Assembly: GCA_964356335.1 (NCBI GenBank)
Contig: CAYHHI010000012.1
Location: 2,766 to 66,765 of the forward strand
Direction: 5' to 3'
Length of the DNA: 64,000 nucleotides
From: an uncultured bacterium
GTDB lineage: Bacteria; Arandabacterota; Arandabacteria; Arandabacterales; Arandabacteraceae
The notes below the pieces were generated by a model. It searched no databases. It was not told the DNA's origin and was given only the letters and a program-made list of their open reading frames with translations. The number at the start of each line of letters is the position of its first letter. Position 1 is the first letter of the stretch. Both the position numbers and the translations under genes were made by a program. This document shows positions 40,924-53,327 of this stretch, piece after piece.

Positions 40924-40999
40924 TGGAGCGGGCAACGGGATTCGAACCCGCGACCCTCAGCTTGGGAAGCTGATGCTCTACCAACTGAGCTATGCCCGC
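40924..40999 (-). tRNA. tRNA-Gly (anticodon CCC)
   Basis: The reverse complement GCGGGCATAGCTCAGTTGGTAGAGCATCAGCTTCCCAAGCTGAGGGTCGCGGGTTCGAATCCCGTTGCCCGCTCCA has anticodon loop TTCCCAA; CCA encoded. Confidence 0.9.
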
Positions 41000-41079: not shown

Positions 41080-44037
41080 TCAGAGGGGTATCTCGGTCAG
41101 CCGGCGGATCGACCGTACTTTAAGTGTGGCCACGCCGAACCTGCGTTGAATGATCCCGCTGGAGACATAGGCGTGGCCGATCTCGAGTCTTTCCATGGTG
41201 ATGCCGTCGGGGACTATGCCTTCGTGGATGCCGTCGGGATTGTCAAGACTCACAAACCACAGGCCCGGGCCCTTGTCCTTGTAATGTCTTATGGCCGCCA
41301 GGAGACCTCGGATGCTTGTGGCAGGTGACGCGCTCGGCGTTCGCACATCCTCATCACACCCATCTCTCTCAAAGAACTCCAGGGGGTGCACCAGCGGAGA
41401 AAAGCCGAGCGAGGCATATTCCATCCTGCGTTTCTGAATCGCAGTGAATTCTCGGGCGGGCAGACCCGTGTCGCAATCGGCGAAACCCAGATCCAGTGCG
41501 GCGCTTGTCGGGACCCTTCCCCTCATCGCAAGGTATTCGGTGAGAAGCCTGCATCTGTCGGTTTGAAGCTCATCGAATGCGCCGCTTCCGACGAGAGCGA
41601 GGGTTTCCTCCTTGTCACTCGGCACTCTGGCCAGGAAGTCGGACAGCGAGTGAAAAGGTGCCTTACGGCGTTCCCTGATCACCAGGTCGATCGTGGCCTG
41701 CGACAGATGCTTTATGGATGCGAGACCGGTTCTTATCAGGGCTTCTTCGATTGCGAAGTCAACCCCGGAGCGATTGACAGACGGCGGCAGCACCCGGATC
41801 CCTACTCTGGTTGCCTCATTGACGTGAACCCAAAGTGGATACATGCCAGAATGGTTCCTCAGGGTCGCAGCATAGAACTCAAGGGGAAAGTTTGCCTTGA
41901 GGTAGGCAGCTGCGTAAGCAAGTGTGCCGAAGGACGCAGCATGCGCCTTGGAGAAGGTGTAGCGCGCGAATCTCTTGATATGCTTCCAGGCCTCAAGCGC
42001 ATCATCATGGGTTGTGCCTGAAGTCTGGGCGAGGAAGAGGAACTTGGCCTCGACGGTGGCGTCGTCGGCGCCGCCATCTTTGAGAGAACGCCTGAAGATG
42101 TCCGCCTCAGCCAGGCCAACCCCTGTGTGCCTTACTATCAATCTCATCACGTCTTCTTCATAAACCGGCAGGCTGATGCCTCGCTTATCTTCCACGGGAC
42201 GCCGTCGGGCTCCGATGCGCCTCTTTATGAACTCCTGCTTCATCCCTCCTGCCGACGGGCCAGGCCGCACAAGCGCAAGAGCAAGGGTGGCGTCGGCCCT
42301 TGTGGTGGCCTTCATCATGCCCAGCAGGTTGCGCATCGCGGGGGATTCGAGTTGAAAGCAGCTCAGGGTCTTCCCCTCTCGGAGAAGGTGGGCCGTCCGG
42401 ATGTCATCGGGCTTGATATCCAAGACCCGGCCGCGGCTTCCTCCAATGTCTCGTGTTGCTTCCTCAATCACGGAGAGCACACGATTCCCAAGCAAATCTA
42501 TCTTGACGAGGCCGATCTTCTCAATTGAGCGCATGTCGAACTGAGTGATCTGAATCCCTTTGTTTGCGATCTCGAGCGGTGTGTAGTAGGTGATGGGGCG
42601 GTCGGAGACCACGATGCCGGCGCAGTGAACACTGGAGTGATTGGGGAAGCCGATGATGGCACTTGCGAGCTCCGCTATGCCCTTGCGGTGTTCGAGGCTG
42701 AGCTCGGGTTTGATGCCGCCAAGCGCTCTTACGATGGTACCCGGGGGATCCTTCGAGGCATGATACGGCAGGCGGTCTGCAAGCGACTGCGCCTCGTAGG
42801 GACTCAGACCAAAGGCCTTGGCGACTTCTCTGGCTGCAAGCCTCGTCTCAAAACAGGCGCGCGTTGAGATCATCGCGACATTGCCTCGACCGAAGCGCCT
42901 GTACGCATAATCAATCACCTCATCCCTCCGCTTCCAGGAGATGTCGATATCGAGATCCGGGTAGTCGGGCCTGAGCTCGTTGAGGAAACGCTCGAAGAGG
43001 AGGCCCTCGGATATGGGGTCGACCTGGGTGATGCCCAGGAGATACGCGACGATCGAGCCCGCTCCTGAGCCTCTGCCCGTCATGGGTATTCCCTTGCGTG
43101 CGGCGAACCCCACGAGGTCGGCAACAACCAGGAAATAGTCCGCCAGGCCGAGTTTGCCGATTACTTGAAGTTCTTCCTGGAGCCTTCCCGAGGCTTCACC
43201 CGGGTGCGGTCCGTACTTCCTTGGGACCGCATCCGAGCACAGCGCCTCTAGGCCCTTCAGGGACTCCTCGAGCGAAGCCTTCACACGCGGAAAGTGAGGT
43301 TCACCGATTTCCAGTCTAAGATCGACCATGTCGGCGAGGCTGTGGGATTCTCGCAGCAAATCCGGTCGATCCGCAAACATCTGGTTGAGAGCACGGCACT
43401 TCTTGAGCGACGCATCTCGTGCGCCGAGGCGGACCTGTCCCACCGTCTTTCCTTCCCCAATTGCCATGAGCACCCGCGAGGTCTTGTAGTCAATCTCGTC
43501 GAGGCATAGCACATCCCATGATGCAAGAGCTCGCAGTGAGTGACGTTGCGCGAGTTCCAGTTTATCCCTAACCGTGGACGGGCTGTCACGGTTGGCGATG
43601 ATCTCGAGCCACACTCGATCTCTCCCAAGAGAACCCCCAAGCCTGAGCGCCGAAGCGCTATCGGGTGAAAGGACTCCCAGCCCCTCGGATGCCTCCTCTA
43701 TAAGAGCGACCAGCAACGCATCGCTTCGAAGATTCACACCGGAGGCTGCTTGGCATAGATTGGCATAGCCTTGCCGGTTGAGGGCGATGAGGCCGATCTG
43801 CTTGCCCGTCAAAGGACAGGTGAGGTCTGCGCTGATTATGGGCTTTACGCCTTCGGCAAGGCATCCTTCGTAGAATTCGATGGCCCCATAGAGATTGCCT
43901 TTGTCGAGGAGCGCGCCTGCCGTAAAGCCTTGTTCCCTGAGATAAAGGCCGATCTTGCCGGCGGCCATCGTGCCGGCGAAAAGCGTGTATCTACTTCGTA
44001 AGCGAAGGGGTACGAAGGATGTAGCCATAGGAGTCAC
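41080..44037 (-). CDS. dnaE2: error-prone DNA polymerase III alpha homolog (DnaE2/ImuC-like)
   Basis: Pol III alpha core motifs GSGAGSIVAYLLGITQVDPI, PDLDIDISWKRRDEVIDY, HCAGIVVS, VKIDLLGNRVLSVI. 985 aa, no tau/beta-binding C-terminal extension evident. Position is downstream of a Y-family polymerase in a lexA-led operon. Confidence 0.85.
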   Translation of the reverse strand: MTPMATSFVPLRLRSRYTLFAGTMAAGKIGLYLREQGFTAGALLDKGNLYGAIEFYEGCLAEGVKPIISADLTCPLTGKQIGLIALNRQGYANLCQAASGVNLRSDALLVALIEEASEGLGVLSPDSASALRLGGSLGRDRVWLEIIANRDSPSTVRDKLELAQRHSLRALASWDVLCLDEIDYKTSRVLMAIGEGKTVGQVRLGARDASLKKCRALNQMFADRPDLLRESHSLADMVDLRLEIGEPHFPRVKASLEESLKGLEALCSDAVPRKYGPHPGEASGRLQEELQVIGKLGLADYFLVVADLVGFAARKGIPMTGRGSGAGSIVAYLLGITQVDPISEGLLFERFLNELRPDYPDLDIDISWKRRDEVIDYAYRRFGRGNVAMISTRACFETRLAAREVAKAFGLSPYEAQSLADRLPYHASKDPPGTIVRALGGIKPELSLEHRKGIAELASAIIGFPNHSSVHCAGIVVSDRPITYYTPLEIANKGIQITQFDMRSIEKIGLVKIDLLGNRVLSVIEEATRDIGGSRGRVLDIKPDDIRTAHLLREGKTLSCFQLESPAMRNLLGMMKATTRADATLALALVRPGPSAGGMKQEFIKRRIGARRRPVEDKRGISLPVYEEDVMRLIVRHTGVGLAEADIFRRSLKDGGADDATVEAKFLFLAQTSGTTHDDALEAWKHIKRFARYTFSKAHAASFGTLAYAAAYLKANFPLEFYAATLRNHSGMYPLWVHVNEATRVGIRVLPPSVNRSGVDFAIEEALIRTGLASIKHLSQATIDLVIRERRKAPFHSLSDFLARVPSDKEETLALVGSGAFDELQTDRCRLLTEYLAMRGRVPTSAALDLGFADCDTGLPAREFTAIQKRRMEYASLGFSPLVHPLEFFERDGCDEDVRTPSASPATSIRGLLAAIRHYKDKGPGLWFVSLDNPDGIHEGIVPDGITMERLEIGHAYVSSGIIQRRFGVATLKVRSIRRLTEIPL

Positions 44038-45214
44038 GCTCGAGGCGGTTCATGAGATTCACCGATCTCCCAACGATAACCGCGGAGTGGCCGAACTTAG
44101 CCCGGATCGTGTCGAGAGAAAGATAGAGTTCCCGCAGCCTCTCCTCCGACGGGTCATCGTAAAGCATCTCCTGGCTGTGGTCTGCGAGCGCAAGCCCGGA
44201 GAGCACCACGCCGACCAGCCGCACGCGGCATCTCCGGTACATCCGCATGAAGACGTCCTTCGCGATCCCGAAGACGGTGTGATCAAGCACGCTGGTCTCG
44301 GAGTACGCTGCCGATGCCGTCTCAAAGGAGCCATCGCCGTAGCGCACCTTGACGCTGACTCTCCCCGGCATGGCCCGGAGGGCTCGCGCCGATCGGCAGG
44401 CCCGCTCGCTAAGGTAGTAAAGCGTGCTCAAGACCTCATCGAGATCAATCGTATCTCTCGTGAAACTGGTCTCCCGTGATATTGACCGCGGAAAGCCAGG
44501 CGGTACGTAGGGGTCACGTCCCCTCAGACGTTCGTAGACGAGAAAAGCGTTCCTGCCGAAGATCTTCTCGAGGTAGTGAAGGGGAAACTGCCTCAGGTGT
44601 TTCACGTGGGTCACATTGATCTGGCGGAGTATCTCTGCTGTCTTCTGCCCGATGCCCAAGACGTCGCTCACCGGCCGCTCACACATGAAATCCTCTTCCC
44701 CGCCGGCCCCCACCGCTGCGACTCCATCGGGCTTGACATCCTTGGCGGCGAGTTTCGCGATCATCCTGTTGGCGGCGAAGCCAAGCGTAACGCCGAGTCC
44801 GACTTCGTCTCTTATTGTGGCCTTGAGATCGTTGCCGAGGCGAAGCGGGTCGCATCTGGAGGCCGGCGTCCCCGTGAGATCGCAGAAAATCTCATCGAGG
44901 TAAGTTTCCACAAAAGGTGTGAGGCGTCTGCACCGGTCAAATATGTGTTCTGCAAACGAGGCATAGACATGTTGGTGGCCCTTGAGGACGACCACTTGGG
45001 GACAGATGCGTACCGCCCCGGCTATTGGCATGCCCGTTCGGATGCCGCGGCGCCTGGCCTCGTAGGACGAACTCGCGACAACACCTGAGCCGACGATCAC
45101 GGGTTTTCCTCGCAAGTTTGGAAAGCGTGCCTGCTCCACCGAAGGGAAAAAGGCATCGATGTCGAGATACATCATGAGCCTGCGGCCTGCTGTCGAGGTA
45201 GAGGGGCTGATCAT
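43991..45214 (-). CDS. dinB: Y-family DNA polymerase (DinB/Pol IV-like, in the ImuB position of a mutasome operon)
   Basis: MMYLDIDAFFPSVEQ, SYEARRRGI, and TYLDEIFCDLTG retain the catalytic Asp/Glu pattern of active Y-family polymerases. The start overlaps the orf84 stop (ATGA). Confidence 0.85.
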   Translation of the reverse strand: MISPSTSTAGRRLMMYLDIDAFFPSVEQARFPNLRGKPVIVGSGVVASSSYEARRRGIRTGMPIAGAVRICPQVVVLKGHQHVYASFAEHIFDRCRRLTPFVETYLDEIFCDLTGTPASRCDPLRLGNDLKATIRDEVGLGVTLGFAANRMIAKLAAKDVKPDGVAAVGAGGEEDFMCERPVSDVLGIGQKTAEILRQINVTHVKHLRQFPLHYLEKIFGRNAFLVYERLRGRDPYVPPGFPRSISRETSFTRDTIDLDEVLSTLYYLSERACRSARALRAMPGRVSVKVRYGDGSFETASAAYSETSVLDHTVFGIAKDVFMRMYRRCRVRLVGVVLSGLALADHSQEMLYDDPSEERLRELYLSLDTIRAKFGHSAVIVGRSVNLMNRLERDSYGYILRTPSLTK

Positions 45215-45465
45215 GACTCCACCATGACCAGATCAAGGTGCCAGACCATATCGTCACTGTTGAAGTGCATCTGGTAGACATCGCCCGAGTCCGACGTAAC
45301 CGAGAAGTAATGGATCTTGGCGTTGCCTTCGCGGTCCATCCAGTAGCAGTTGACTTTCACCACTCTGTGTATCTGGCCGCGCCGCATGAAGACGAGGGGC
45401 TTAAGCGTCCCTCCCCCGAAATCCGCCCGCACTCGTATTTTCTCATCAAGGCGCTCAACGAGCAT
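45211..45465 (-). CDS. hypothetical 84-aa protein, translationally coupled to the Y-family polymerase
   Basis: The ORF sits 9 nt after the lexA stop and its TGA overlaps the ATG of the polymerase gene. Product MLVERLDEKIRVRADFGGGTLKPLVFMRRGQIHRVVKVNCYWMDREGNAKIHYFSVTSDSGDVYQMHFNSDDMVWHLDLVMVES. No family recognised. Confidence 0.6.
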   Translation of the reverse strand: MLVERLDEKIRVRADFGGGTLKPLVFMRRGQIHRVVKVNCYWMDREGNAKIHYFSVTSDSGDVYQMHFNSDDMVWHLDLVMVES

Positions 45466-45474
45466 GAATCTGCC

Positions 45475-46077
45475 TCACTTGATTTTTCTTATAAGGCCGA
45501 CCACTTTACCACCGATACGCAGGTTCTGGTGTTTGGGATCTATCCTTATGGACTTGTATGAAGCATTCCTTGGCTCGAGGTCTATTGCCTTGCCCCTCTT
45601 CCGCATGACCTTGACCGTTGCTTCATCATCACCCGGGTAAGCCACAACCATGTCACCGTCTTCAGCATCCTCCTGCTGTCTCACGACGACATAGTCGCCA
45701 TCAAACATGCCGGCGTCCCGCATGCTGTCCCCATTGACTCGCACGGCGAAGTAGACGGCATTATCATGAAAGAGCGTGCTTACATCGAGCCAGCCTTCTC
45801 TGTTCTCGACCGCCATTATGGGTAAGCCGGCGGCAACCCTTCCGACTATGGGCACACCGCGGATCGGCCTCGCCTCGGGAGAAAGCATGAGCCTCTTCCC
45901 TACTCGGCGGAGGAAGCCCTTCTTCGTGAGGGCATCGAGGTGCTGGCTCACGGTCGCCGATGAGGTCAGGCGGAATCTTCTGCCGATCTCTCTATATGAT
46001 GGGAATCTGTCGCGGTCCCTTATGGATGCGATTATGTAGTCAAATATCTCGCGCTGGCGCGGCGTAAGTGGTCTCAT
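45475..46077 (-). CDS. lexA: LexA repressor
   Basis: Winged HTH MRPLTPRQREIFDYI...PSYREIGRRF, Ala-Gly cleavage site in GRVAAGLP, Ser nucleophile in VNGDSM, and Lys in VVGLIRK. The first ATG (46077) is used; the TTG extension to 46149 is rejected. Confidence 0.92.
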   Translation of the reverse strand: MRPLTPRQREIFDYIIASIRDRDRFPSYREIGRRFRLTSSATVSQHLDALTKKGFLRRVGKRLMLSPEARPIRGVPIVGRVAAGLPIMAVENREGWLDVSTLFHDNAVYFAVRVNGDSMRDAGMFDGDYVVVRQQEDAEDGDMVVAYPGDDEATVKVMRKRGKAIDLEPRNASYKSIRIDPKHQNLRIGGKVVGLIRKIK

Positions 46078-46093
46078 TTTCTCACCCTCTATC

Positions 46094-46122
46094 AAAATAC
46101 CAAACAATTGTTCGGTAGTCAA
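46094..46122 (-). promoter_or_regulatory. sigma70-type promoter of the lexA operon
   Basis: On the minus strand, TTGACT (46122-46117), a 17-nt spacer, then TATTTT (46099-46094). The ATG lies 17 nt downstream of the -10. Confidence 0.6.
46101..46114 (-). promoter_or_regulatory. LexA operator (Cheo-box-like GAAC-N4-GTTY palindrome)
   Basis: The minus strand reads CGAACAATTGTTTG. This is one mismatch from the CGAAC-N4-GTTCG palindrome, and it lies inside the promoter spacer of lexA. Confidence 0.6.
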
Positions 46123-46201: not shown

Positions 46202-46915
46202 TCAGAAGCCTGCGGCTATCGCGAAAGCGCTTACTATCCAGGCGCAGCCTATGATTGCCGCTGAGGTTGTGTAGTAAAGCACCGGCCTTCTCATACGCAG
46301 GCCGTAGACGCTCTCCTTGACACCCAGGCCTATGCGGTATCCCACCGGGAAGAACACGCCGCCAAGAGCAGCCCAGATCAAGCCCTCGGCACCCATAAAG
46401 GATACTAGACCGCCCGGACGATTGAATGAAAGCAAATACCGGCAGGGTGCCATGTGCATGCCGATGAAGTAGAAACCTGCCGATCCCAGAAGGCCTGCTG
46501 AGAAACCCGTGGCCACTCTGGGCAGAGCACCCTTGTCCAGTCTCGGGCCAGCCGCGGTAGCTATGCCTGCCAGAGCACCCCCAGCAAGCATGACGGCCAG
46601 GCACGAATTCGCCTTGCACATAAAGGGCAAATGCAGGATCGGAACCGCAAGCTGCTTGAGCGCAACCGCTATAACGGCGATACCCAGGACAAACAGCGGC
46701 CTCCTGAAGATGGCGATACATACCGCCATCAGGCCTATGCCCAGGCCGGTCAGGAGATCGCCCTTGTATGGGATTGAAGCTGATTTCATTGCTCCGCCCA
46801 GGACGACCTCGAGAAAGCCCCACACCGAGCCCAAGACGAGTATTGTTATCAGAACATCCCTTTTCGCTGCGGATTCTATTCTCGGCTTCTCCATTTCTGA
46901 CTCCTCCCCGCTCAT
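46202..46915 (-). CDS. hypothetical integral membrane protein (6-7 TM)
   Basis: Repeated hydrophobic helices (VLITILVLGSVWGFLEVVLGGAM, LLTGLGIGLMAVCIAIF, LFVLGIAVIAVAL ...). The overlapping frame 46191-46919 is Arg/Gly/Pro-rich and was rejected. Confidence 0.6.
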   Translation of the reverse strand: MSGEESEMEKPRIESAAKRDVLITILVLGSVWGFLEVVLGGAMKSASIPYKGDLLTGLGIGLMAVCIAIFRRPLFVLGIAVIAVALKQLAVPILHLPFMCKANSCLAVMLAGGALAGIATAAGPRLDKGALPRVATGFSAGLLGSAGFYFIGMHMAPCRYLLSFNRPGGLVSFMGAEGLIWAALGGVFFPVGYRIGLGVKESVYGLRMRRPVLYYTTSAAIIGCAWIVSAFAIAAGF

Positions 46916-47290: not shown

Positions 47291-47983
47291 GTGCGAGTAG
47301 GTACTTCTGGTTTGGTGCCGCTTCTGGCAATCATGACTCTGGTAGCTGTGTCCCAGGCAGGGATTCCCGTCTCACAGACTTCCACGATATGGGCAGAGCC
47401 CGATACTGCCATGGTCGGTGACACCGTCGAGGTTTACGTGATCGTCAGAGATCTTTACGGGGAAACCCTTCCAGAGCTCTCGTGTACCTTCTATACGGAG
47501 CATCCGGGCATTGATTTCCCTGTTGGAGGCCCCGATATAACTGATATAGATGGTTTTGCGCAGGGTGCCATCAGGACTGACTCCAATTCCATCTTCTTTC
47601 ACGACTCCCACATCTATGTGGATTGTGAAGGCTTCATACTTGGTCCGTCTACCCCGATGTATTGGGTGTGCCGTGCCGGTGTCGATGCGAACCATGGAGA
47701 GCTGTCGGGATTTGGCTTGTACCAGAACACGCCGAATCCCTTCAAGGGGAATACGGAGATCAGATATGCTCTGCCTGCGCGTGCGGATGTCAGCCTCGAG
47801 ATATGCGACGTTCTCGGCAAGATGGTCAGGACGCTTGTAGACGGTGCCGTAGGAGTGGGATATCACAAGGCTGCATGGGACGGGAAGGATGCTCTCGGCA
47901 GGTCTGTAACTCCGGGCGTTTATTATGTTCGCATGACGACGCCTGCCTATCGTGAGACGCGAAGTCTGATTCTCTTGAGATAG
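47291..47983 (+). CDS. secreted Ig-like domain protein with T9SS-type C-terminal sorting domain
   Basis: GTG start with AAGGAGG 8 nt upstream and signal peptide MRVGTSGLVPLLAIMTLVAVSQA. The C-terminus LYQNTPNPFKGNTEIRYALPARADVSLEICDVLGKMVRTL...GVYYVRMTT...LILLR is FlgD-Ig/T9SS CTD-like. Confidence 0.75.
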   Translation: MRVGTSGLVPLLAIMTLVAVSQAGIPVSQTSTIWAEPDTAMVGDTVEVYVIVRDLYGETLPELSCTFYTEHPGIDFPVGGPDITDIDGFAQGAIRTDSNSIFFHDSHIYVDCEGFILGPSTPMYWVCRAGVDANHGELSGFGLYQNTPNPFKGNTEIRYALPARADVSLEICDVLGKMVRTLVDGAVGVGYHKAAWDGKDALGRSVTPGVYYVRMTTPAYRETRSLILLR

Positions 47984-48047: not shown

Positions 48048-48989
48048 TCACCCTGATGCAGTCCGGTAGATATCCAAGACCTCGGATGCTATCGCTCGGT
48101 CGTCTCGCCTATCGGTCACGTCCAACCACTTGATGTCTTTTTCCTTTGTGAACCACGTCATCTGGCGCTTGGCGAAGTGTCGGGTGTTCCTCTTGATCAG
48201 GCCTACCGCCTCCTGAAATGACAGAGCGCCCCTCAGATGAAGCATGATCTCCCGATATCCCAGGCTATTCTTGACGACAGGCGATTCCTCGTAGCCCATC
48301 TTGATAAGCAACCTGACCTCGTCCACAAGGCCGGCCTCTATCATACGGTTAACCCTTCTCTCTATGATCTGGTAAAGGTCTCCCCTGTCCATCGTCAGGC
48401 CGATCTTGACAAAGGGCAGCAAGAATGGCGCCGTTGCCTTTTCCAGGGTGCTCATGGGCTTGCCTGTGATCTCGAAGACCTCAAGAGCCCTGATTACCCG
48501 AGGGAGATTAAGCGGGTCCACGTGTCCGGCCTTCTCGGGATCGACCTCGAAAAGCCTCTGCCAAAGGACTGGCCTGCCCTTCAGGCGTGCGAGTTCCCCG
48601 AGGCGCCTTCTGATCTCTGGGTCTGCCGCCGGTCCGTCGAAGATTCCGTGGAGAAGAGCCCTGACATAGAGTCCGGTACCGCCCACGACGATGGGCAGTC
48701 CACGTCTGGCGAGGATTTCGGAAATGATCCTCCGTGCATCCTTCTCGTACTCTTTGGACGTGTACTGCCTGTCAGGTTCGGCCATGTCGATCAAGTGATG
48801 AGGGACTTCCTCCAGCATCCTAACATCAGGCTTTGCCGTCCCGATATCCATGAAGCGGTAAACAAGGCGTGAATCTGCCGAAACAATCTCGCCCGAAAGG
48901 CGCTTTGCCACATGAAGAGCGACGTTGCTCTTGCCGACTCCGGTTGGGCCCACGAGAATCAAGATGTGCTGAGGCTCGTGGTGCTTCAC
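48048..48989 (-). CDS. miaA: tRNA dimethylallyltransferase
   Basis: P-loop LVGPTGVGKS, DSRLVYRFMDIGTAKP. 313 aa. 4-nt overlap with mutL. Confidence 0.95.
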   Translation of the reverse strand: MKHHEPQHILILVGPTGVGKSNVALHVAKRLSGEIVSADSRLVYRFMDIGTAKPDVRMLEEVPHHLIDMAEPDRQYTSKEYEKDARRIISEILARRGLPIVVGGTGLYVRALLHGIFDGPAADPEIRRRLGELARLKGRPVLWQRLFEVDPEKAGHVDPLNLPRVIRALEVFEITGKPMSTLEKATAPFLLPFVKIGLTMDRGDLYQIIERRVNRMIEAGLVDEVRLLIKMGYEESPVVKNSLGYREIMLHLRGALSFQEAVGLIKRNTRHFAKRQMTWFTKEKDIKWLDVTDRRDDRAIASEVLDIYRTASG

Positions 48990-50701
48990 TTTCTGAGGAA
49001 CCTTCTTTCGATCTCATCCCAGGAGAGCCTTATCATGGTGGGACGGCCGTGGGGACATGCAAGCGGCATACGGGCCGCGAAGAGGCGCTCGACAAGCGAT
49101 CTTATCTCATCGTCATTCATCTTGTCGCCGGCCTTGACAGCACCCTTACAGGCAAAGGCAGCAGCCAGCAAATGATGGATGTCGTGGGATTCGGACCGGG
49201 TCTCTATCACTTCGTCCACGATATCGGCGAGAACCCGCTTCTTATCCCCCTCCTTAAAGAGCGCCGGCACTGCTTCTATGACGTAGGTCCGTCTGCCGAA
49301 CTTTTTCAACTCGAAACCGATTTGTCTTATCTTGTCCCAGTGTTCGTCGATCACATCTTCCTCTTCAGGCGTCACTTCAAGCGTCTCTGGAAAGAGGAGT
49401 TCCTGCATGACGGGTTCTCGTCCCTCAAGATGGCTCTTCACTTCCTCGTAAAGCACCCGTTCATGAGCGGCGTGCTGGTCGATCAGATAGAACTCCTCGT
49501 CAGACTCCGCGAGGATGTAGGAGTTTCTTATCTGGACAATGGGAGTGGCCGGCGCTGCCGTCTCAGACTTCTCCATCTTGTGAGGTCTGTATGTCGGCTT
49601 GGGCTCAGAGACAAGGATCTTGGTCTTGTCGAAGAGGGCGATTGGCCGAATAGGTGGCTGCGCCCCGGGTCTCGGCGCGAGCAGGGGCCTTGCCAAGAGC
49701 GGTGGAATCATCTTTCGCGACGTCAGTGCACTCCCTACGGCCCGCGACACAAAGTCTCTGACCTCCCTGTCACGCCTGAACCTCACTTCTCGCTTTGTCG
49801 GGTGAACGTTGAAATCTGCCTCAGCAGGATTGATATCTATCAGGATAACGCCTGTTGGATACCGGTTTCTCATCAAGGTGTGGCCGTAGGCATCACAAAC
49901 GGCTCTCAGGATCATCTTGTTCTCCACGGGCCGTCTGTTTACAAAGATTGATATGTAGCCGCTTGAGGTTCTTGCCTCCTCGGGGCGCGACAGGAAACCG
50001 CAGAGTTGGATGTGCTCGTCTGAGACATTGACTGCAACTGAGTTCTCGCCAAAGCTCCTGCCGAGGATGCTTCCCACCCTTTCCTCGATGCTCTCAACCG
50101 CGGGCAGGCTCAAGATCACTTTCCTATCCCTAATCAGTTTCATCGAGATCCAGTAATGGCTTATGGCATGAGTCGCGAAGGTCTTGACAACGTGCCTGAC
50201 CTCTGTGGCTTTGGACTTGAGAAACTTGGCCCTTGCCGGCGCGTTAAAGAAAAGGTTGGTCACCTTGATGGTGGTTCCCGCCGGACGCGTGGCCTTGGTC
50301 ACCTCATCGATCTTTCCACCCCTCAAAACAATCTTTGTCGCAAGGTCCTCACCTTCGGAGCGGGTGAGCACTTCAATCTCCGCAACACTCGCAATGCTCG
50401 CCAGAGCCTCTCCCCTGAAGCCCATGGTCCTTATGCTTTCGAGGTCATCGGCAGTGGATATTTTGCTTGTGGCGTGACGCTCGAAGGCAAGCAGAGCATC
50501 TTCCTCGGTCATCCCGACGCCGTCATCCGTGATCTTTATTAGCTCCCTGCCTTCACCTTTGGTCTCTACTGTGATGTGAGATGCCCCGGCATCTATCGCG
50601 TTCTCGACAAGCTCCTTGACCACTGAGGAAGGCCTGTCAACTACCTCACCTGCCGCTATCATGTTAACGGTCTTAGGATCGAGGATCTTGATCTTTGCCA
50701 T
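48986..50701 (-). CDS. mutL: DNA mismatch repair endonuclease MutL
   Basis: GHKL ATPase N-terminus IAAGEVVDRPSSVVKELVENAIDAG, DNGxGM-like TDDGVGM, and a C-terminal endonuclease region with ACKGAVKAGD and CPHGRPT. Confidence 0.95.
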   Translation of the reverse strand: MAKIKILDPKTVNMIAAGEVVDRPSSVVKELVENAIDAGASHITVETKGEGRELIKITDDGVGMTEEDALLAFERHATSKISTADDLESIRTMGFRGEALASIASVAEIEVLTRSEGEDLATKIVLRGGKIDEVTKATRPAGTTIKVTNLFFNAPARAKFLKSKATEVRHVVKTFATHAISHYWISMKLIRDRKVILSLPAVESIEERVGSILGRSFGENSVAVNVSDEHIQLCGFLSRPEEARTSSGYISIFVNRRPVENKMILRAVCDAYGHTLMRNRYPTGVILIDINPAEADFNVHPTKREVRFRRDREVRDFVSRAVGSALTSRKMIPPLLARPLLAPRPGAQPPIRPIALFDKTKILVSEPKPTYRPHKMEKSETAAPATPIVQIRNSYILAESDEEFYLIDQHAAHERVLYEEVKSHLEGREPVMQELLFPETLEVTPEEEDVIDEHWDKIRQIGFELKKFGRRTYVIEAVPALFKEGDKKRVLADIVDEVIETRSESHDIHHLLAAAFACKGAVKAGDKMNDDEIRSLVERLFAARMPLACPHGRPTMIRLSWDEIERRFLRK

Positions 50702-53327
50702 CTGTAATCTTCTCGTTCTTGGAAGCGATTCTCTTCAGGGCCGCGATCTCTTCCAGTGCCTGAAGCGGGGTCATGGTGTCAAGATCTAGCTCGGCGAGTT
50801 TTCGCGCAAGCTCCTTCTCGGTCTGCCAGAGGGTGAGCTGAATGTCCCCCGATATCGGAGAATGCTCTCCCCGCGCGAGCCTCGGAATATTGCCTGTGCT
50901 GTATTCGTCCTCTTCGAGATTCGCCAGGATTTCCTTGGCCCTCTCGACCACATCCTGGGGCAGGCCTGCAAGCCTTGCGACATGGATGCCATAGCTCCTG
51001 TCGGAGCCGCCTTCAACAATCTTTCTGAGGAAGATGATTCTATCACCATATTCCTTGACGAGCACGTTGAAATTCTTGACCCGCTGTAGAATGCCCGCTA
51101 GGTCAGTCAGCTCATGGTAGTGAGTGGCAAAGAGCGTAAGCGGGCTTCGTCTTCCATTGTTATGAAGGTACTCAACCACCGCCCAGGCGATGCTGAGCCC
51201 GTCATAAGTGCTCGTGCCGCGTCCGACCTCATCCAGGAGCACGAGGCTCCTGTCGGTGGCGTTATTGAGGATGTTGGATGTCTCGATCATCTCCACAAGG
51301 AAGGTGCTTTGCCCTCTGGCGACTCTGTCAGTCGCGCCGATCCGTGTGAAGATCTTATCCACGATTCCGATGCTTGCGGCCGACGCCGGCACGAAGCTTC
51401 CGATCTGTGCCATGATCACGATCAGCGCAACCTGCCTGATGAAAGTCGACTTGCCAGCCATGTTGGGGCCAGTGATCACCAAGACCTGATTGGTCTCATC
51501 TAACAGCACGTCGTTGGGGACGAACTGGTCACCGCCAAGGAATCTCTCAACTACAGGATGGCGCCCTTCGCGAATCTCTATTCTGCGGTCGCCGGTCACA
51601 TGAGGCTTCACATAATTGCTCTGTCTTGCAACCTCTGCAAAGGAGGCGAGAACGTCGATCTCCGCGACCATGCGCGCGGCCTCCTGGATCCTGTCGGTAG
51701 CTTCGGCGACTCTGGTCCGCACACTCTTGAAGACGTCATCTTCGAGTTCGGTTGCGTTTTCTTCGGCCTGGAGGATTTCGGCTTCCTTGCACTTGAGGTC
51801 CTCAGTGACGAATCTCTCACCACCAACCAGAGTCTGTTTCCTCACGTAATCCTGCGGGACGCTCTTGAGGTTCGTCTTGCTGACCTCGATGTAGTAACCG
51901 AAGATTTTGTTGTAGCCCACCTTGAGAGAACCGATACCGGTTCTCTCCCTCTCAGTAGCCTGGAGGTCAAGAATCCATTTTCTGGCATCATGGGATGCGC
52001 CGCGAAGCTGGTCGAGTCTCTTGTCAAAGCCTTCCCGTATTACCTCTCCCTCTTTGAAGGTAGCCGGAGCCTCATCCTTGACAGCCTGAGAAATCAGGTC
52101 CGCGACGTCTTTGAGTTCGGGCATGGTCTGGGACACATGTGATAGAACCTGGGAGCTGGCGTCGGAGATTATCCTCCTGAGCTCGGGAAAGTGCCCGAGG
52201 GATTCCTTTATTGCCAGGAGGTCCCGAGGTCCGGCCTTCTCGCAGCAAACACGCCCCACGAGGCGCTCGAGGTCACTTATGTGCCTTATGATTGACCTGG
52301 TGTCCTTTCTTCTTATCTCGTCGCCGACCAATTCATCGACTGCCTCAAGTCTGGCGCTTATGGTCGCGGCGACCACCAGGGGATTCCTGATCCAACTCCT
52401 CAGACACCTTCCACCCATAGGTGTCAGGGTCTTATCCAGAACGCCAAGGAGGGATGCCCCTTTGTCCTCTGGATGCAGAGGATTCATGATCTCAAGATTG
52501 GCAAACGACGCCTCATCGATATCCATGAAGAGAGCATTCCTCTGAACGGTGAGCCTTGAGATGTGAGGAAGCAGTCTTTTCTGGGTCTGTCTCAAGTATG
52601 AGATGAGCGCACCGGCAGCACCTGTAGCCATGGGGATACTCTGACACCCAAAACCATCGAGGGTCGCCACCTTGAAATGGTCGCGAAGGGTTGCCGATGC
52701 TGAATCGTGGAGGAAAAGCCAGTCATCAAGTGCCGTCAATGCCGTCTCCGGCAGGGCGTGCTTAATGCGCGCGACGATGGCCTCGGGCATGGACTCCCTC
52801 GGGTACAGCACCTCGCTCGGCCGTGTCTTCGCCATCTCCCTTAAGAGATCATGTGCCGACACCTCGGTAACACTGAACTCGCCCGTGGAGAGATCTGTCT
52901 TCGCCAGCCCCCACTTCTCCTTCTCACCGACGATGGCCAAGAGGTAGTTGTTCTCCTTCTCATCGAGGAGGATCGACGAGGTCACGGTACCGGGCGTGAT
53001 CACCTCCACCACTCGCCGCTTGACCAGGCCCTTAGCGTCCTTTGGGTTTTCGACCTGATCGCAGATGGCGACCTTGTAGCCTGCTCGCACAAGCCTCGCG
53101 ATATAGGTGTCCACAGCATGGTAGGGCACGCCCGCAAGCGGGATTCTCTTGTCCCCTTCTCTTGACCTTGAGGTGAGCGCAATACCCAGGACGCGCGCGG
53201 CGGTCGCGGCATCCTCGTAGAAGGTCTCATAAAAATCTCCCATCCTGAAGAGGAGTATGGTGTCAGGATAATCCTTCTTTATGCTCATGTATTGGGACAT
53301 CATCGGTGTCTCGTGCGGTTGCGTCAT
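50673..53327 (-). CDS. mutS: DNA mismatch repair protein MutS
   Basis: N-terminal TPMMSQYMSIK...GDFYE (mismatch-binding Phe-x-Glu), Walker A GPNMAGKST, DEVGRGTSTYDG. 884 aa. Confidence 0.97.
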   Translation of the reverse strand: MTQPHETPMMSQYMSIKKDYPDTILLFRMGDFYETFYEDAATAARVLGIALTSRSREGDKRIPLAGVPYHAVDTYIARLVRAGYKVAICDQVENPKDAKGLVKRRVVEVITPGTVTSSILLDEKENNYLLAIVGEKEKWGLAKTDLSTGEFSVTEVSAHDLLREMAKTRPSEVLYPRESMPEAIVARIKHALPETALTALDDWLFLHDSASATLRDHFKVATLDGFGCQSIPMATGAAGALISYLRQTQKRLLPHISRLTVQRNALFMDIDEASFANLEIMNPLHPEDKGASLLGVLDKTLTPMGGRCLRSWIRNPLVVAATISARLEAVDELVGDEIRRKDTRSIIRHISDLERLVGRVCCEKAGPRDLLAIKESLGHFPELRRIISDASSQVLSHVSQTMPELKDVADLISQAVKDEAPATFKEGEVIREGFDKRLDQLRGASHDARKWILDLQATERERTGIGSLKVGYNKIFGYYIEVSKTNLKSVPQDYVRKQTLVGGERFVTEDLKCKEAEILQAEENATELEDDVFKSVRTRVAEATDRIQEAARMVAEIDVLASFAEVARQSNYVKPHVTGDRRIEIREGRHPVVERFLGGDQFVPNDVLLDETNQVLVITGPNMAGKSTFIRQVALIVIMAQIGSFVPASAASIGIVDKIFTRIGATDRVARGQSTFLVEMIETSNILNNATDRSLVLLDEVGRGTSTYDGLSIAWAVVEYLHNNGRRSPLTLFATHYHELTDLAGILQRVKNFNVLVKEYGDRIIFLRKIVEGGSDRSYGIHVARLAGLPQDVVERAKEILANLEEDEYSTGNIPRLARGEHSPISGDIQLTLWQTEKELARKLAELDLDTMTPLQALEEIAALKRIASKNEKITDGKDQDPRS

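Follow-up and report, generated by a model that had tools for sequence, protein, structure and literature searches.

We analysed a 64,000-nucleotide (nt) stretch of DNA from an uncultured bacterium (GenBank assembly GCA_964356335.1, contig CAYHHI010000012.1, positions 2,766 to 66,765 of the forward strand), referred to below as the window, and studied in it an operon of four genes: lexA, orf84, polY, which encodes a Y-family DNA polymerase (PolY), and a gene for a C-family DNA polymerase of the DnaE2 type (Table 1). This operon is likely to be an SOS-controlled unit for a mutasome in which ImuB is split and ImuA is absent, its genes being lexA, imuB-C (orf84), an active polY and dnaE2. As judged from the predicted proteins, the two parts of the split ImuB are an apparently active PolY and a stand-alone ImuB-C.

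Operon structure and proposed LexA regulation

All four open reading frames were recovered where a first-pass annotation of the window had placed them, head to tail on the minus strand with lexA first and a single palindrome-bearing promoter in front, and its view of them as a tightly coupled, LexA-headed operon for translesion synthesis or mutagenesis is supported by the predicted properties of the genes and proteins. The ATG start of lexA is backed by a ribosome-binding site, by a Pfam match from residue 1 and by orthologs, and GAGGGTGAGAAA precedes it. lexA and orf84 are 9 nt apart, a GAGG overlaps the stop codon of lexA, and the start of polY sits in an ATGA overlap with the stop codon of orf84. 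The longest dnaE reading frame begins with a GTG at 44037 (41080-44037; 985 amino acids, aa), and the ATG at 44028 is the start both in orthologs and in the public gene call, whose 982-aa product is 100% identical; with this ATG the gene overlaps polY by 38 nt. A tRNA-Gly gene (40924-40999) comes after the operon. A terminator-like match at 43962-43948 was dismissed, as terminator-like sites were no more numerous than in shuffled sequence. Given that the gene order is the same in every related locus long enough, and that promoter and operator are near-invariant between unalignable flanks, the four-gene arrangement is judged to be more than a product of chance.

The promoter sequence AGCTTGACT...TGGTATNNTG was conserved across 19 orthologous promoters. 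The palindrome quoted in the first-pass annotation (CGAACAATTGTTTG, 46101-46114) forms the centre of a near-perfect 20-bp inverted repeat (TACCGAACAATTGTTTGGTA, 46098-46117), which is the sole GAAC-N4-GTTY site within the 64-kb window. Among the 19 promoters, the combined promoter and operator, AGCTTGACTACCGAACANNTGTTTGGTAT, is almost invariant while the sequence on either side is unalignable; outside the central two bases, one or two operator substitutions occurred in only 3 of the 19. The motif is present in one copy per locus and always upstream of lexA. This invariance amid diverged flanks, together with the single occurrence upstream of lexA, makes the operator a strong phylogenetic footprint for a putative repressor site that would occlude RNA polymerase. 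Its core, CGAAC-N4-GTTYG, resembles the CGAAC-N4-GTTCG SOS box, and we take it to be of the Bacillus/Gram-positive type. From the footprint and the likeness to an SOS box we infer that LexA is autoregulated through this predicted operator in its own promoter, the candidate target for LexA binding being TACCGAACANNTGTTTGGTA. In 17 of the 19 promoters the half-sites are asymmetric, TACCGAAC versus TACCAAAC; the operator of locus L040 is a perfect palindrome, and that of locus L011 has CAAAC in both halves.

The lexA product passes TIGR00498 (1.6e-52; 178 bits against a cutoff of 111), matches LexA_DNA_bind and Peptidase_S24 in Pfam and aligns over its full length with E. coli LexA. Its VAAG cleavage site, GDSM and TVK align with A84-G85, S119 and K156 of the E. 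coli protein, respectively, and both the predicted cleavage site and the predicted Ser/Lys dyad are intact.

Assignment of orf84 to ImuB-C

The orf84 product was assigned as the detached C-terminal domain of ImuB (ImuB-C, Pfam DUF6504) on the grounds of DUF6504 matches, hhalign comparison with ImuB C-termini, an invariant Trp, an all-beta model and the PolY neighbourhood. PF20114 (DUF6504) was matched by 61 of 95 diverse members of the orf84 family, at best with 8.7e-9. When the family profile was compared by hhalign with nine proteobacterial ImuB C-termini, a probability of 95.9% was obtained (E 6.2e-9, 72 columns), the match spanning orf84 residues 7-80 and the extreme ImuB C-terminus; the comparison with one ImuB gave an E of 0.003. 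On a Paracoccus plasmid, a canonical ImuB whose gene lies between imuA and dnaE2 likewise matches PF20114, at residues 418-490, in its last 75 residues, and RefSeq calls a full-length Afipia ImuB (L032:1876-3399, plasmid pHCG3B), adjoined by an "ImuA family protein", a "DUF6504 family protein". DUF6504 is unmentioned in the literature searched, where its equivalence with ImuB-C seems to be undocumented.

The C-terminal Trp, W75, is the sole invariant column among the 95 family sequences, and such a Trp is a hallmark of the ImuB-C superfamily according to Aravind et al. (PMC3765255). An AlphaFold2 model of the protein (predicted local distance difference test, pLDDT, 95.6) is all-beta with six strands. 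A fold search with this model against PDB returned nothing at E<=1e-3, and a sequence search of PDB with the family profile returned chance matches only; ImuB-C is described as a beta-barrel without close PDB relatives by Timinskas and Venclovas (PMC12926913). Thus in size, beta-rich fold, C-terminal Trp and homology to the ImuB C-terminus, orf84 has the traits of the superfamily.

A word-indexed search with orf84 alone recovered only relatives of at least 73% identity, and a diverse alignment added 11 distant members. An exhaustive representative profile search with the family yielded 451 proteins at E<=1e-3, and the 150 matches listed of these 451 were without exception small and stand-alone, with lengths of 50-138 aa and mostly 80-90 aa. 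The distant homologs (28-31% identity) lay directly upstream of a PolY gene in all four cases that could be located, which points to the published association of ImuB-C with PolY. The first-pass annotation had proposed a two-polymerase translesion module, autoregulated by LexA, with orf84 as a new accessory subunit. The two polymerases and the autoregulation are consistent with the catalytic motifs of both enzymes and with the conserved operator, and the neighbourhood survey of orf84 homologs yielded the PolY link; the novelty of orf84, however, did not hold up, and by homology the protein is a stand-alone ImuB-C, the C-terminal part of the ImuB that had been thought missing.

Predicted activity and C-terminal motifs of PolY

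Pfam detected IMS and IMS_C in PolY. Residues D18, D107 and E108 align with D7, D105 and E106 of the Dbh/Dpo4-type chain 4f4y, and D18, D20, F23, D107 and E108 fall on the catalytic Asp/Glu and steric-gate residues of that chain; the catalytic signature claimed earlier for the Y-family member was therefore correctly aligned. It was also conserved in orthologs, as the DIDAFF and LDE/FDE motifs and the steric-gate aromatic residue were kept in 17 of 17 clade loci (the window, 15 loci and L040). PolY is thus apparently active as a polymerase.

PolY could instead be a scaffold only, like the catalytically dead ImuB, with DnaE2 as the sole bypass polymerase and with the catalytic residues of PolY serving a DnaE2-independent, Pol IV-like role or none; we regard this as unlikely. 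The Y-family subunit of the canonical mutasome is purely structural, DnaE2 doing the synthesis (PMC6511836, PMC12926913), and PolY here shares with ImuB the same logic of a clamp-binding motif, a RecA-N-terminus (RecA-NT) motif and ImuB-C. Nevertheless, the catalytic motifs and the steric gate are invariant in all 17 loci although overall identity to the window PolY drops to 57% among the compared loci, and such invariance amid divergence argues for selection on catalysis.

After its little-finger domain, PolY carries three conserved elements. The first is a clamp-binding-like Q-x-x-L-Y motif; the second, at about residues 358-380, is a RecA-NT-like motif, L-Y-x-x-L-D-x-I-R-x-K/R-F/Y-G-H-S-x-V-I-x-G; and the third is an invariant tail, LERDSYGYILRTPSLTK. 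A RecA-NT-like motif was described in 2019 (PMC6511836). When a profile of 14 PolY tails was compared by hhalign with seven RecA N-termini, a score of 22.9 was obtained (probability 76%, E 2e-5) over RecA residues 2-27, whereas column shuffles of the tail profile reached at most 16.2 and none of 200 reached 22.9. In addition, the tails of two related PolYs match the N-terminal part of DUF4113. A HMMER search of PDB with the PolY tail motif did not recover RecA, and because HMMER alone is blind to the similarity, the assignment of the middle element as a RecA-NT-like motif is only moderately supported. Given this RecA-N-terminus-like motif in PolY, RecA probably replaces ImuA. The observation of the first-pass annotation that the operon has no ImuA-sized gene was borne out. 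ImuA is a RecA/SulA-like protein of about 200-250 aa, and tblastn with two ImuA proteins found nothing in the window, where no ImuB homolog was detected either; no imuA was present in any orthologous locus, and the flanks of related loci had neither ImuA nor ImuB homologs.

The polY/dnaE2 overlap and conservation of the cassette

Across 17 loci, the polY/dnaE2 overlap has a mean nucleotide identity of 0.95-0.99 at all codon positions, compared with 0.58 at upstream wobble positions. It encodes the PolY tail YGYILRTPSLTK, followed by the stop, and the DnaE2 N-terminus MATSFVPLRLRS. The frames are shifted by one base against each other, which places each nucleotide at a first or second codon position in one of the two, so that dual coding can explain the invariance and probably does. 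Loci of Planctomycetota and the FCB group, despite a protein identity of just 35-37%, still show a recognisable overlap, and conservation of the PolY tail GYILRTPSLTK likewise extends from Planctomycetota to the FCB group. Since PLRLRS is kept by DnaE2 also in locus L041, which has no overlapping polY, the PolY tail may owe its conservation in part to DnaE2 and not to a function of its own. The overlap probably provides translational coupling, and a docking role for the overlap or the tail is possible. Programmed frameshifting at the overlap was rejected, as dnaE2 lies in the +1 frame relative to polY and no recognisable +1 slippery/stop context was present.

Close homologs of orf84 were found in metagenomes and in 13 contigs of metagenome-assembled genomes (MAGs), 3 of which were labelled Candidatus Eisenbacteria and the rest "bacterium"; NCBI puts the Candidatus Eisenbacteria group in the candidate phylum Candidatus Eiseniibacteriota. 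The order lexA, orf84, polY, dnaE2 was kept in about 20 loci from Candidatus Eisenbacteria and unclassified MAGs, across which DnaE2 identity falls to 46%. Even L040, with a DnaE2 of 46% identity, keeps the flanks, mutL-miaA on one side and DUF512-der-plsY-gpsA on the other. The cassette thus belongs stably to the chromosome in this clade. Identity to orthologs was 71-96% for orf84, 64-87% for LexA, 57-79% for PolY and 49-66% for DnaE2, which makes orf84 the best conserved of the four proteins. Horizontal transfer was unsupported, as GC content is 0.57-0.59 in the operon and 0.55-0.61 outside it and synteny of the flanks holds throughout the clade. One MAG has a 355-aa gene (L022:1615-2682) inserted between imuB-C and polY and ATGA-coupled on both sides; its product has WSPDG-type repeats that by eye resemble a TolB/PD40-like beta-propeller.

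Outside this clade, L043:2880-7946, from an unassigned metagenomic lineage, carries lexA, a gene for an 83-aa ImuB-C, polY and dnaE2. Its DnaE2 is 37% identical, its flanks are unrelated, its promoter bears a different palindrome, TACCATCATATGATGGTA, and the second catalytic motif of its PolY is DD, not DE. Of the other DnaE2 relatives examined, the nearest (36-39% identity) either pair with PolY and lack ImuB-C, as in one MAG each of Planctomycetota (L042) and the FCB group (L044), or stand with lexA only (L041), a distribution that suggests modular gain or loss of ImuB-C.

The four genes might also be two SOS functions that are merely transcribed together, a Geobacter-type unit of ImuB-C and PolY on the one hand and a separate DnaE2 on the other, with no four-component complex. 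The distant orf84 homologs that pair with PolY without DnaE2 fit such a view, as do the related DnaE2 genes that are accompanied by PolY but no ImuB-C (L042, L044) or by lexA only (L041). Against it, the 38-nt overlap of polY and dnaE2 is conserved across phyla, the clade strictly inherits the four genes together, and complexes for this type of module find support in published AlphaFold models (PMC12926913); we consider two separate functions quite improbable.

The Pol III alpha homolog as a DnaE2-type polymerase

For a mutasome, the remaining component is the C-family polymerase, in which Pfam detected PHP, DNA_pol3_alpha, finger and HHH_6 domains. The aspartates of PDLDID and KIDLLG align with the catalytic motifs of Taq Pol III alpha and are conserved in orthologs. 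Its first PHP motif is FVPLRLRS, compared with FVHLHxHS in DnaE1, and DK stands in place of DH; with the PHP histidines replaced in this way, the metal site of the domain is lost. The stretch after the (HhH)2 domain is only about 150 aa long, which leaves no room for both an oligonucleotide/oligosaccharide-binding (OB) fold and a tau-binding C-terminal domain (CTD), and Pfam detected no OB fold in the last 151 residues, whereas it detected one in a 60%-identical homolog. The CTD is typical of DnaE1 and absent from every DnaE2 (PMC3919608). Furthermore, the error-prone model PRK05672 aligns with residues 5-977, whereas DnaE1 models stop at about residue 835. Given the lack of room for a CTD, a hallmark of DnaE2, the end-to-end alignment of PRK05672 and the early end of the DnaE1 models, the protein was assigned as DnaE2-type, and the family-model searches and alignment thus support the first-pass annotation on this point. 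It scored 400 bits against an iPolY-linked Desulfosarcina DnaE and 268 bits against a canonical ImuAB-linked DnaE2, an indirect hint at the DnaE2B group. That the 985-aa homolog is a replicative DnaE1 and the operon not a mutasome is highly improbable, for although its best NCBIfam score is to the DnaE1 model PRK05673 (542 bits, compared with 457 bits for the error-prone model, both below the cutoffs) and databases annotate it as DNA polymerase III subunit alpha, this is opposed by the model boundaries, the short C-terminus and the PHP replacements described above and by the position of the gene in a LexA operon, where its translation is coupled to that of a translesion polymerase.

Features and neighbourhood of the operon

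The coordinates of the operon are collected in Table 1.

Table 1. Genes and predicted regulatory elements of the operon (positions in the window)
Feature	Position	Strand	Description
Sigma-70-type promoter	46094-46122	-	TTGACT 46122-46117, 17-nt spacer, TATTTT 46099-46094, TG before it; consensus scan
Putative LexA operator	46098-46117	.	20-bp palindrome TACCGAACA-AT-TGTTTGGTA filling the -35/-10 spacer
lexA	45475-46077	-	200 aa
orf84	45211-45465	-	84 aa, predicted stand-alone ImuB-C domain protein (DUF6504 superfamily)
polY	43991-45214	-	407-aa Y-family DNA polymerase, catalytic residues intact
dnaE2-type C-family polymerase gene	41080-44028	-	982 aa from ATG at 44028
polY/dnaE2 overlap	43991-44028	-	38 nt, coding in two frames

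Directly upstream of the lexA promoter, a 237-aa hydrophobic open reading frame (46202-46915) has no Pfam match and has its own good promoter-like site (46962-46934); L001 and L040 carry a 227-aa gene, also without a Pfam match, at the same position. A lone plus-strand gene in the minus-strand run (47291-47983) encodes an FlgD Ig-like domain with a weak match to a Por secretion tail, and the L001 gene at the same relative position also carries an FlgD Ig-like domain. The genes mutS, mutL and then miaA lie at 48048-53327, 2-7 kb upstream of the mutasome operon; mutL and miaA are adjacent also in L001, L006 and L040, and mutS is present in L001.

Two further observations concern loci of other lineages. 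A DUF72 gene stands next to LexA-linked DnaE2 genes both on a Desulfosarcina plasmid (L010:2018-2824) and on an unrelated metagenomic contig (L041:9864-10760). On a Candidatus Anammoxibacter contig (L042:954-2906), SMODS and SLATT genes occur just upstream of polY-dnaE2 and resemble a defence pair of the cyclic oligonucleotide-based antiphage signalling system (CBASS) type.

Proposed mechanism and its support

If the operon works as proposed, LexA would repress it by occluding RNA polymerase. Upon DNA damage, activated RecA would bring about LexA self-cleavage, and coupled translation would then make the four proteins. PolY would be the organising subunit, which docks on the beta clamp and binds RecA via the RecA-NT-like motif, so that RecA would stand in for ImuA. 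The free ImuB-C barrel would bridge to the PHP domain of DnaE2; fused ImuB-C contacts this domain in published AlphaFold models of the mycobacterial mutasome (PMC12926913). Both polymerases could contribute to lesion bypass and mutagenesis, until newly made LexA would shut the operon off again.

Several points weigh against this account. The orf84 sequence alone falls below the gathering cutoff of PF20114 (14.6 against 24.2 bits, E 0.041). The PolY tail of the window alone has no match to DUF4113 or another Pfam family, and the RecA-NT assignment draws on a profile match of 26 columns at the 76% probability given above. PolY keeps its catalytic residues, yet its use as a polymerase within the complex is not thereby proven. 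Every protein-protein contact is predicted by homology to complexes that are themselves models, and the module in this lineage is known from sequence alone. Finally, the lack of imuA and of a second imuB and the existence of a separate DnaE1 were assessed over the 64-kb window only.

As for the origin of the cassette, we tentatively entertain, though we doubt it, that the Eisenbacteria-type cassette is an independent assembly and not a relative of the actinobacterial one described below, ImuB-C and lexA having joined an ancient PolY-DnaE2 pair already fused by its overlap. If so, the invariant tail GYILRTPSLTK would serve as a docking peptide, so far undescribed, for DnaE2 or ImuB-C, and the operon would represent a living intermediate between a PolY-RecA complex and the canonical ImuA-ImuB-DnaE2 mutasome, with its two working polymerases acting as inserter and extender.

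For the split-ImuB mutasome as such, the naturally divided ImuB, in which ImuB-C is the most conserved component, could help to dissect what ImuB-C binds. Moreover, the clean operator and promoter are available for predicting the SOS regulon in Candidatus Eisenbacteria.

Comparison with known systems

The canonical cassette, (lexA)-imuA-imuB-dnaE2, as in Pseudomonas, Caulobacter and Mycobacterium, is likewise an SOS-regulated operon that ends in dnaE2, and in its Y-family protein a clamp-binding motif, a RecA-NT-like motif and ImuB-C are laid out in the same way. The operon described here differs in that it has no ImuA, that its Y-family protein keeps the catalytic residues and that its ImuB-C is a separate polypeptide encoded upstream, not a C-terminal fusion.

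The ImuB-C domain was named in 2013, when stand-alone ImuB-C was reported to be encoded beside DinB, often with LexA (PMC3765255), and operons of lexA, imuB-C and polY were described in 2019, that of Geobacter sulfurreducens, with a GSU0042-like imuB-C, having been shown experimentally to be damage-inducible and a single transcription unit (PMC6511836). The Geobacter operon has the same promoter-proximal order as ours, lexA, a gene for a small ImuB-C protein and an active polY. Its LexA box is of a different type from the operator found here. It is also without dnaE2; the authors who described it reasoned that DnaE2 is not needed where PolY is active, yet the window encodes both.

The same 2019 survey reported an inactive PolY with ImuB-C and DnaE2 in Kyrpidia, and an active PolY with DnaE2 but without ImuB-C in Bacteroidetes (PMC6511836). 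With the Kyrpidia tusciae-type module (DnaE2X group), the window operon shares the split ImuB, that is, PolY plus free ImuB-C, as well as DnaE2 and the lack of ImuA; the Kyrpidia PolY, however, is catalytically inactive, whereas the PolY here is intact. The PolY-DnaE2 pair of Bacteroidetes (Cellulophaga algicola; DnaE2B-PolY-RecA) likewise sets two apparently active polymerases side by side but, unlike the operon here, has no ImuB-C. L042 and L044, the nearest DnaE2 relatives examined outside the clade, have this Bacteroidetes-like two-gene form with the same overlap of 32-38 nt.

The closest counterpart comes from a 2026 survey that distinguished 11 module types, one of them consisting of DnaE2B, an active PolY, a stand-alone ImuB-C and RecA (Tessaracoccus), a type found only in Actinobacteria among about 3000 complete genomes (PMC12926913). 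As predicted from its proteins, the window operon has exactly this composition of DnaE2, ImuB-C, active PolY and RecA. Thus, where the first-pass annotation had called the composition non-canonical, it was right in that the operon is unlike imuA-imuB-dnaE2, but the composition is not novel, the same set having been published in 2026 (PMC12926913). The DnaE2-[ImuB-C]-PolY-RecA module of Tessaracoccus lapidicaptus (fourth DnaE2B group) shares with the operon the stand-alone ImuB-C, the active PolY and, by its predicted sequence features, the RecA-NT-like motif. The likeness is one of composition, the DnaE2 here being a candidate member of the DnaE2B clade. The two differ in that the hosts here are Candidatus Eisenbacteria MAGs and the unassigned L043, not Actinobacteria, and lexA is the first gene of the operon. 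The locus therefore reveals no new kind of system, but it is a taxonomic extension of a known module: a recently catalogued and experimentally untouched mutasome type is now seen beyond Actinobacteria, in an uncultured candidate phylum and in one or more additional lineages.

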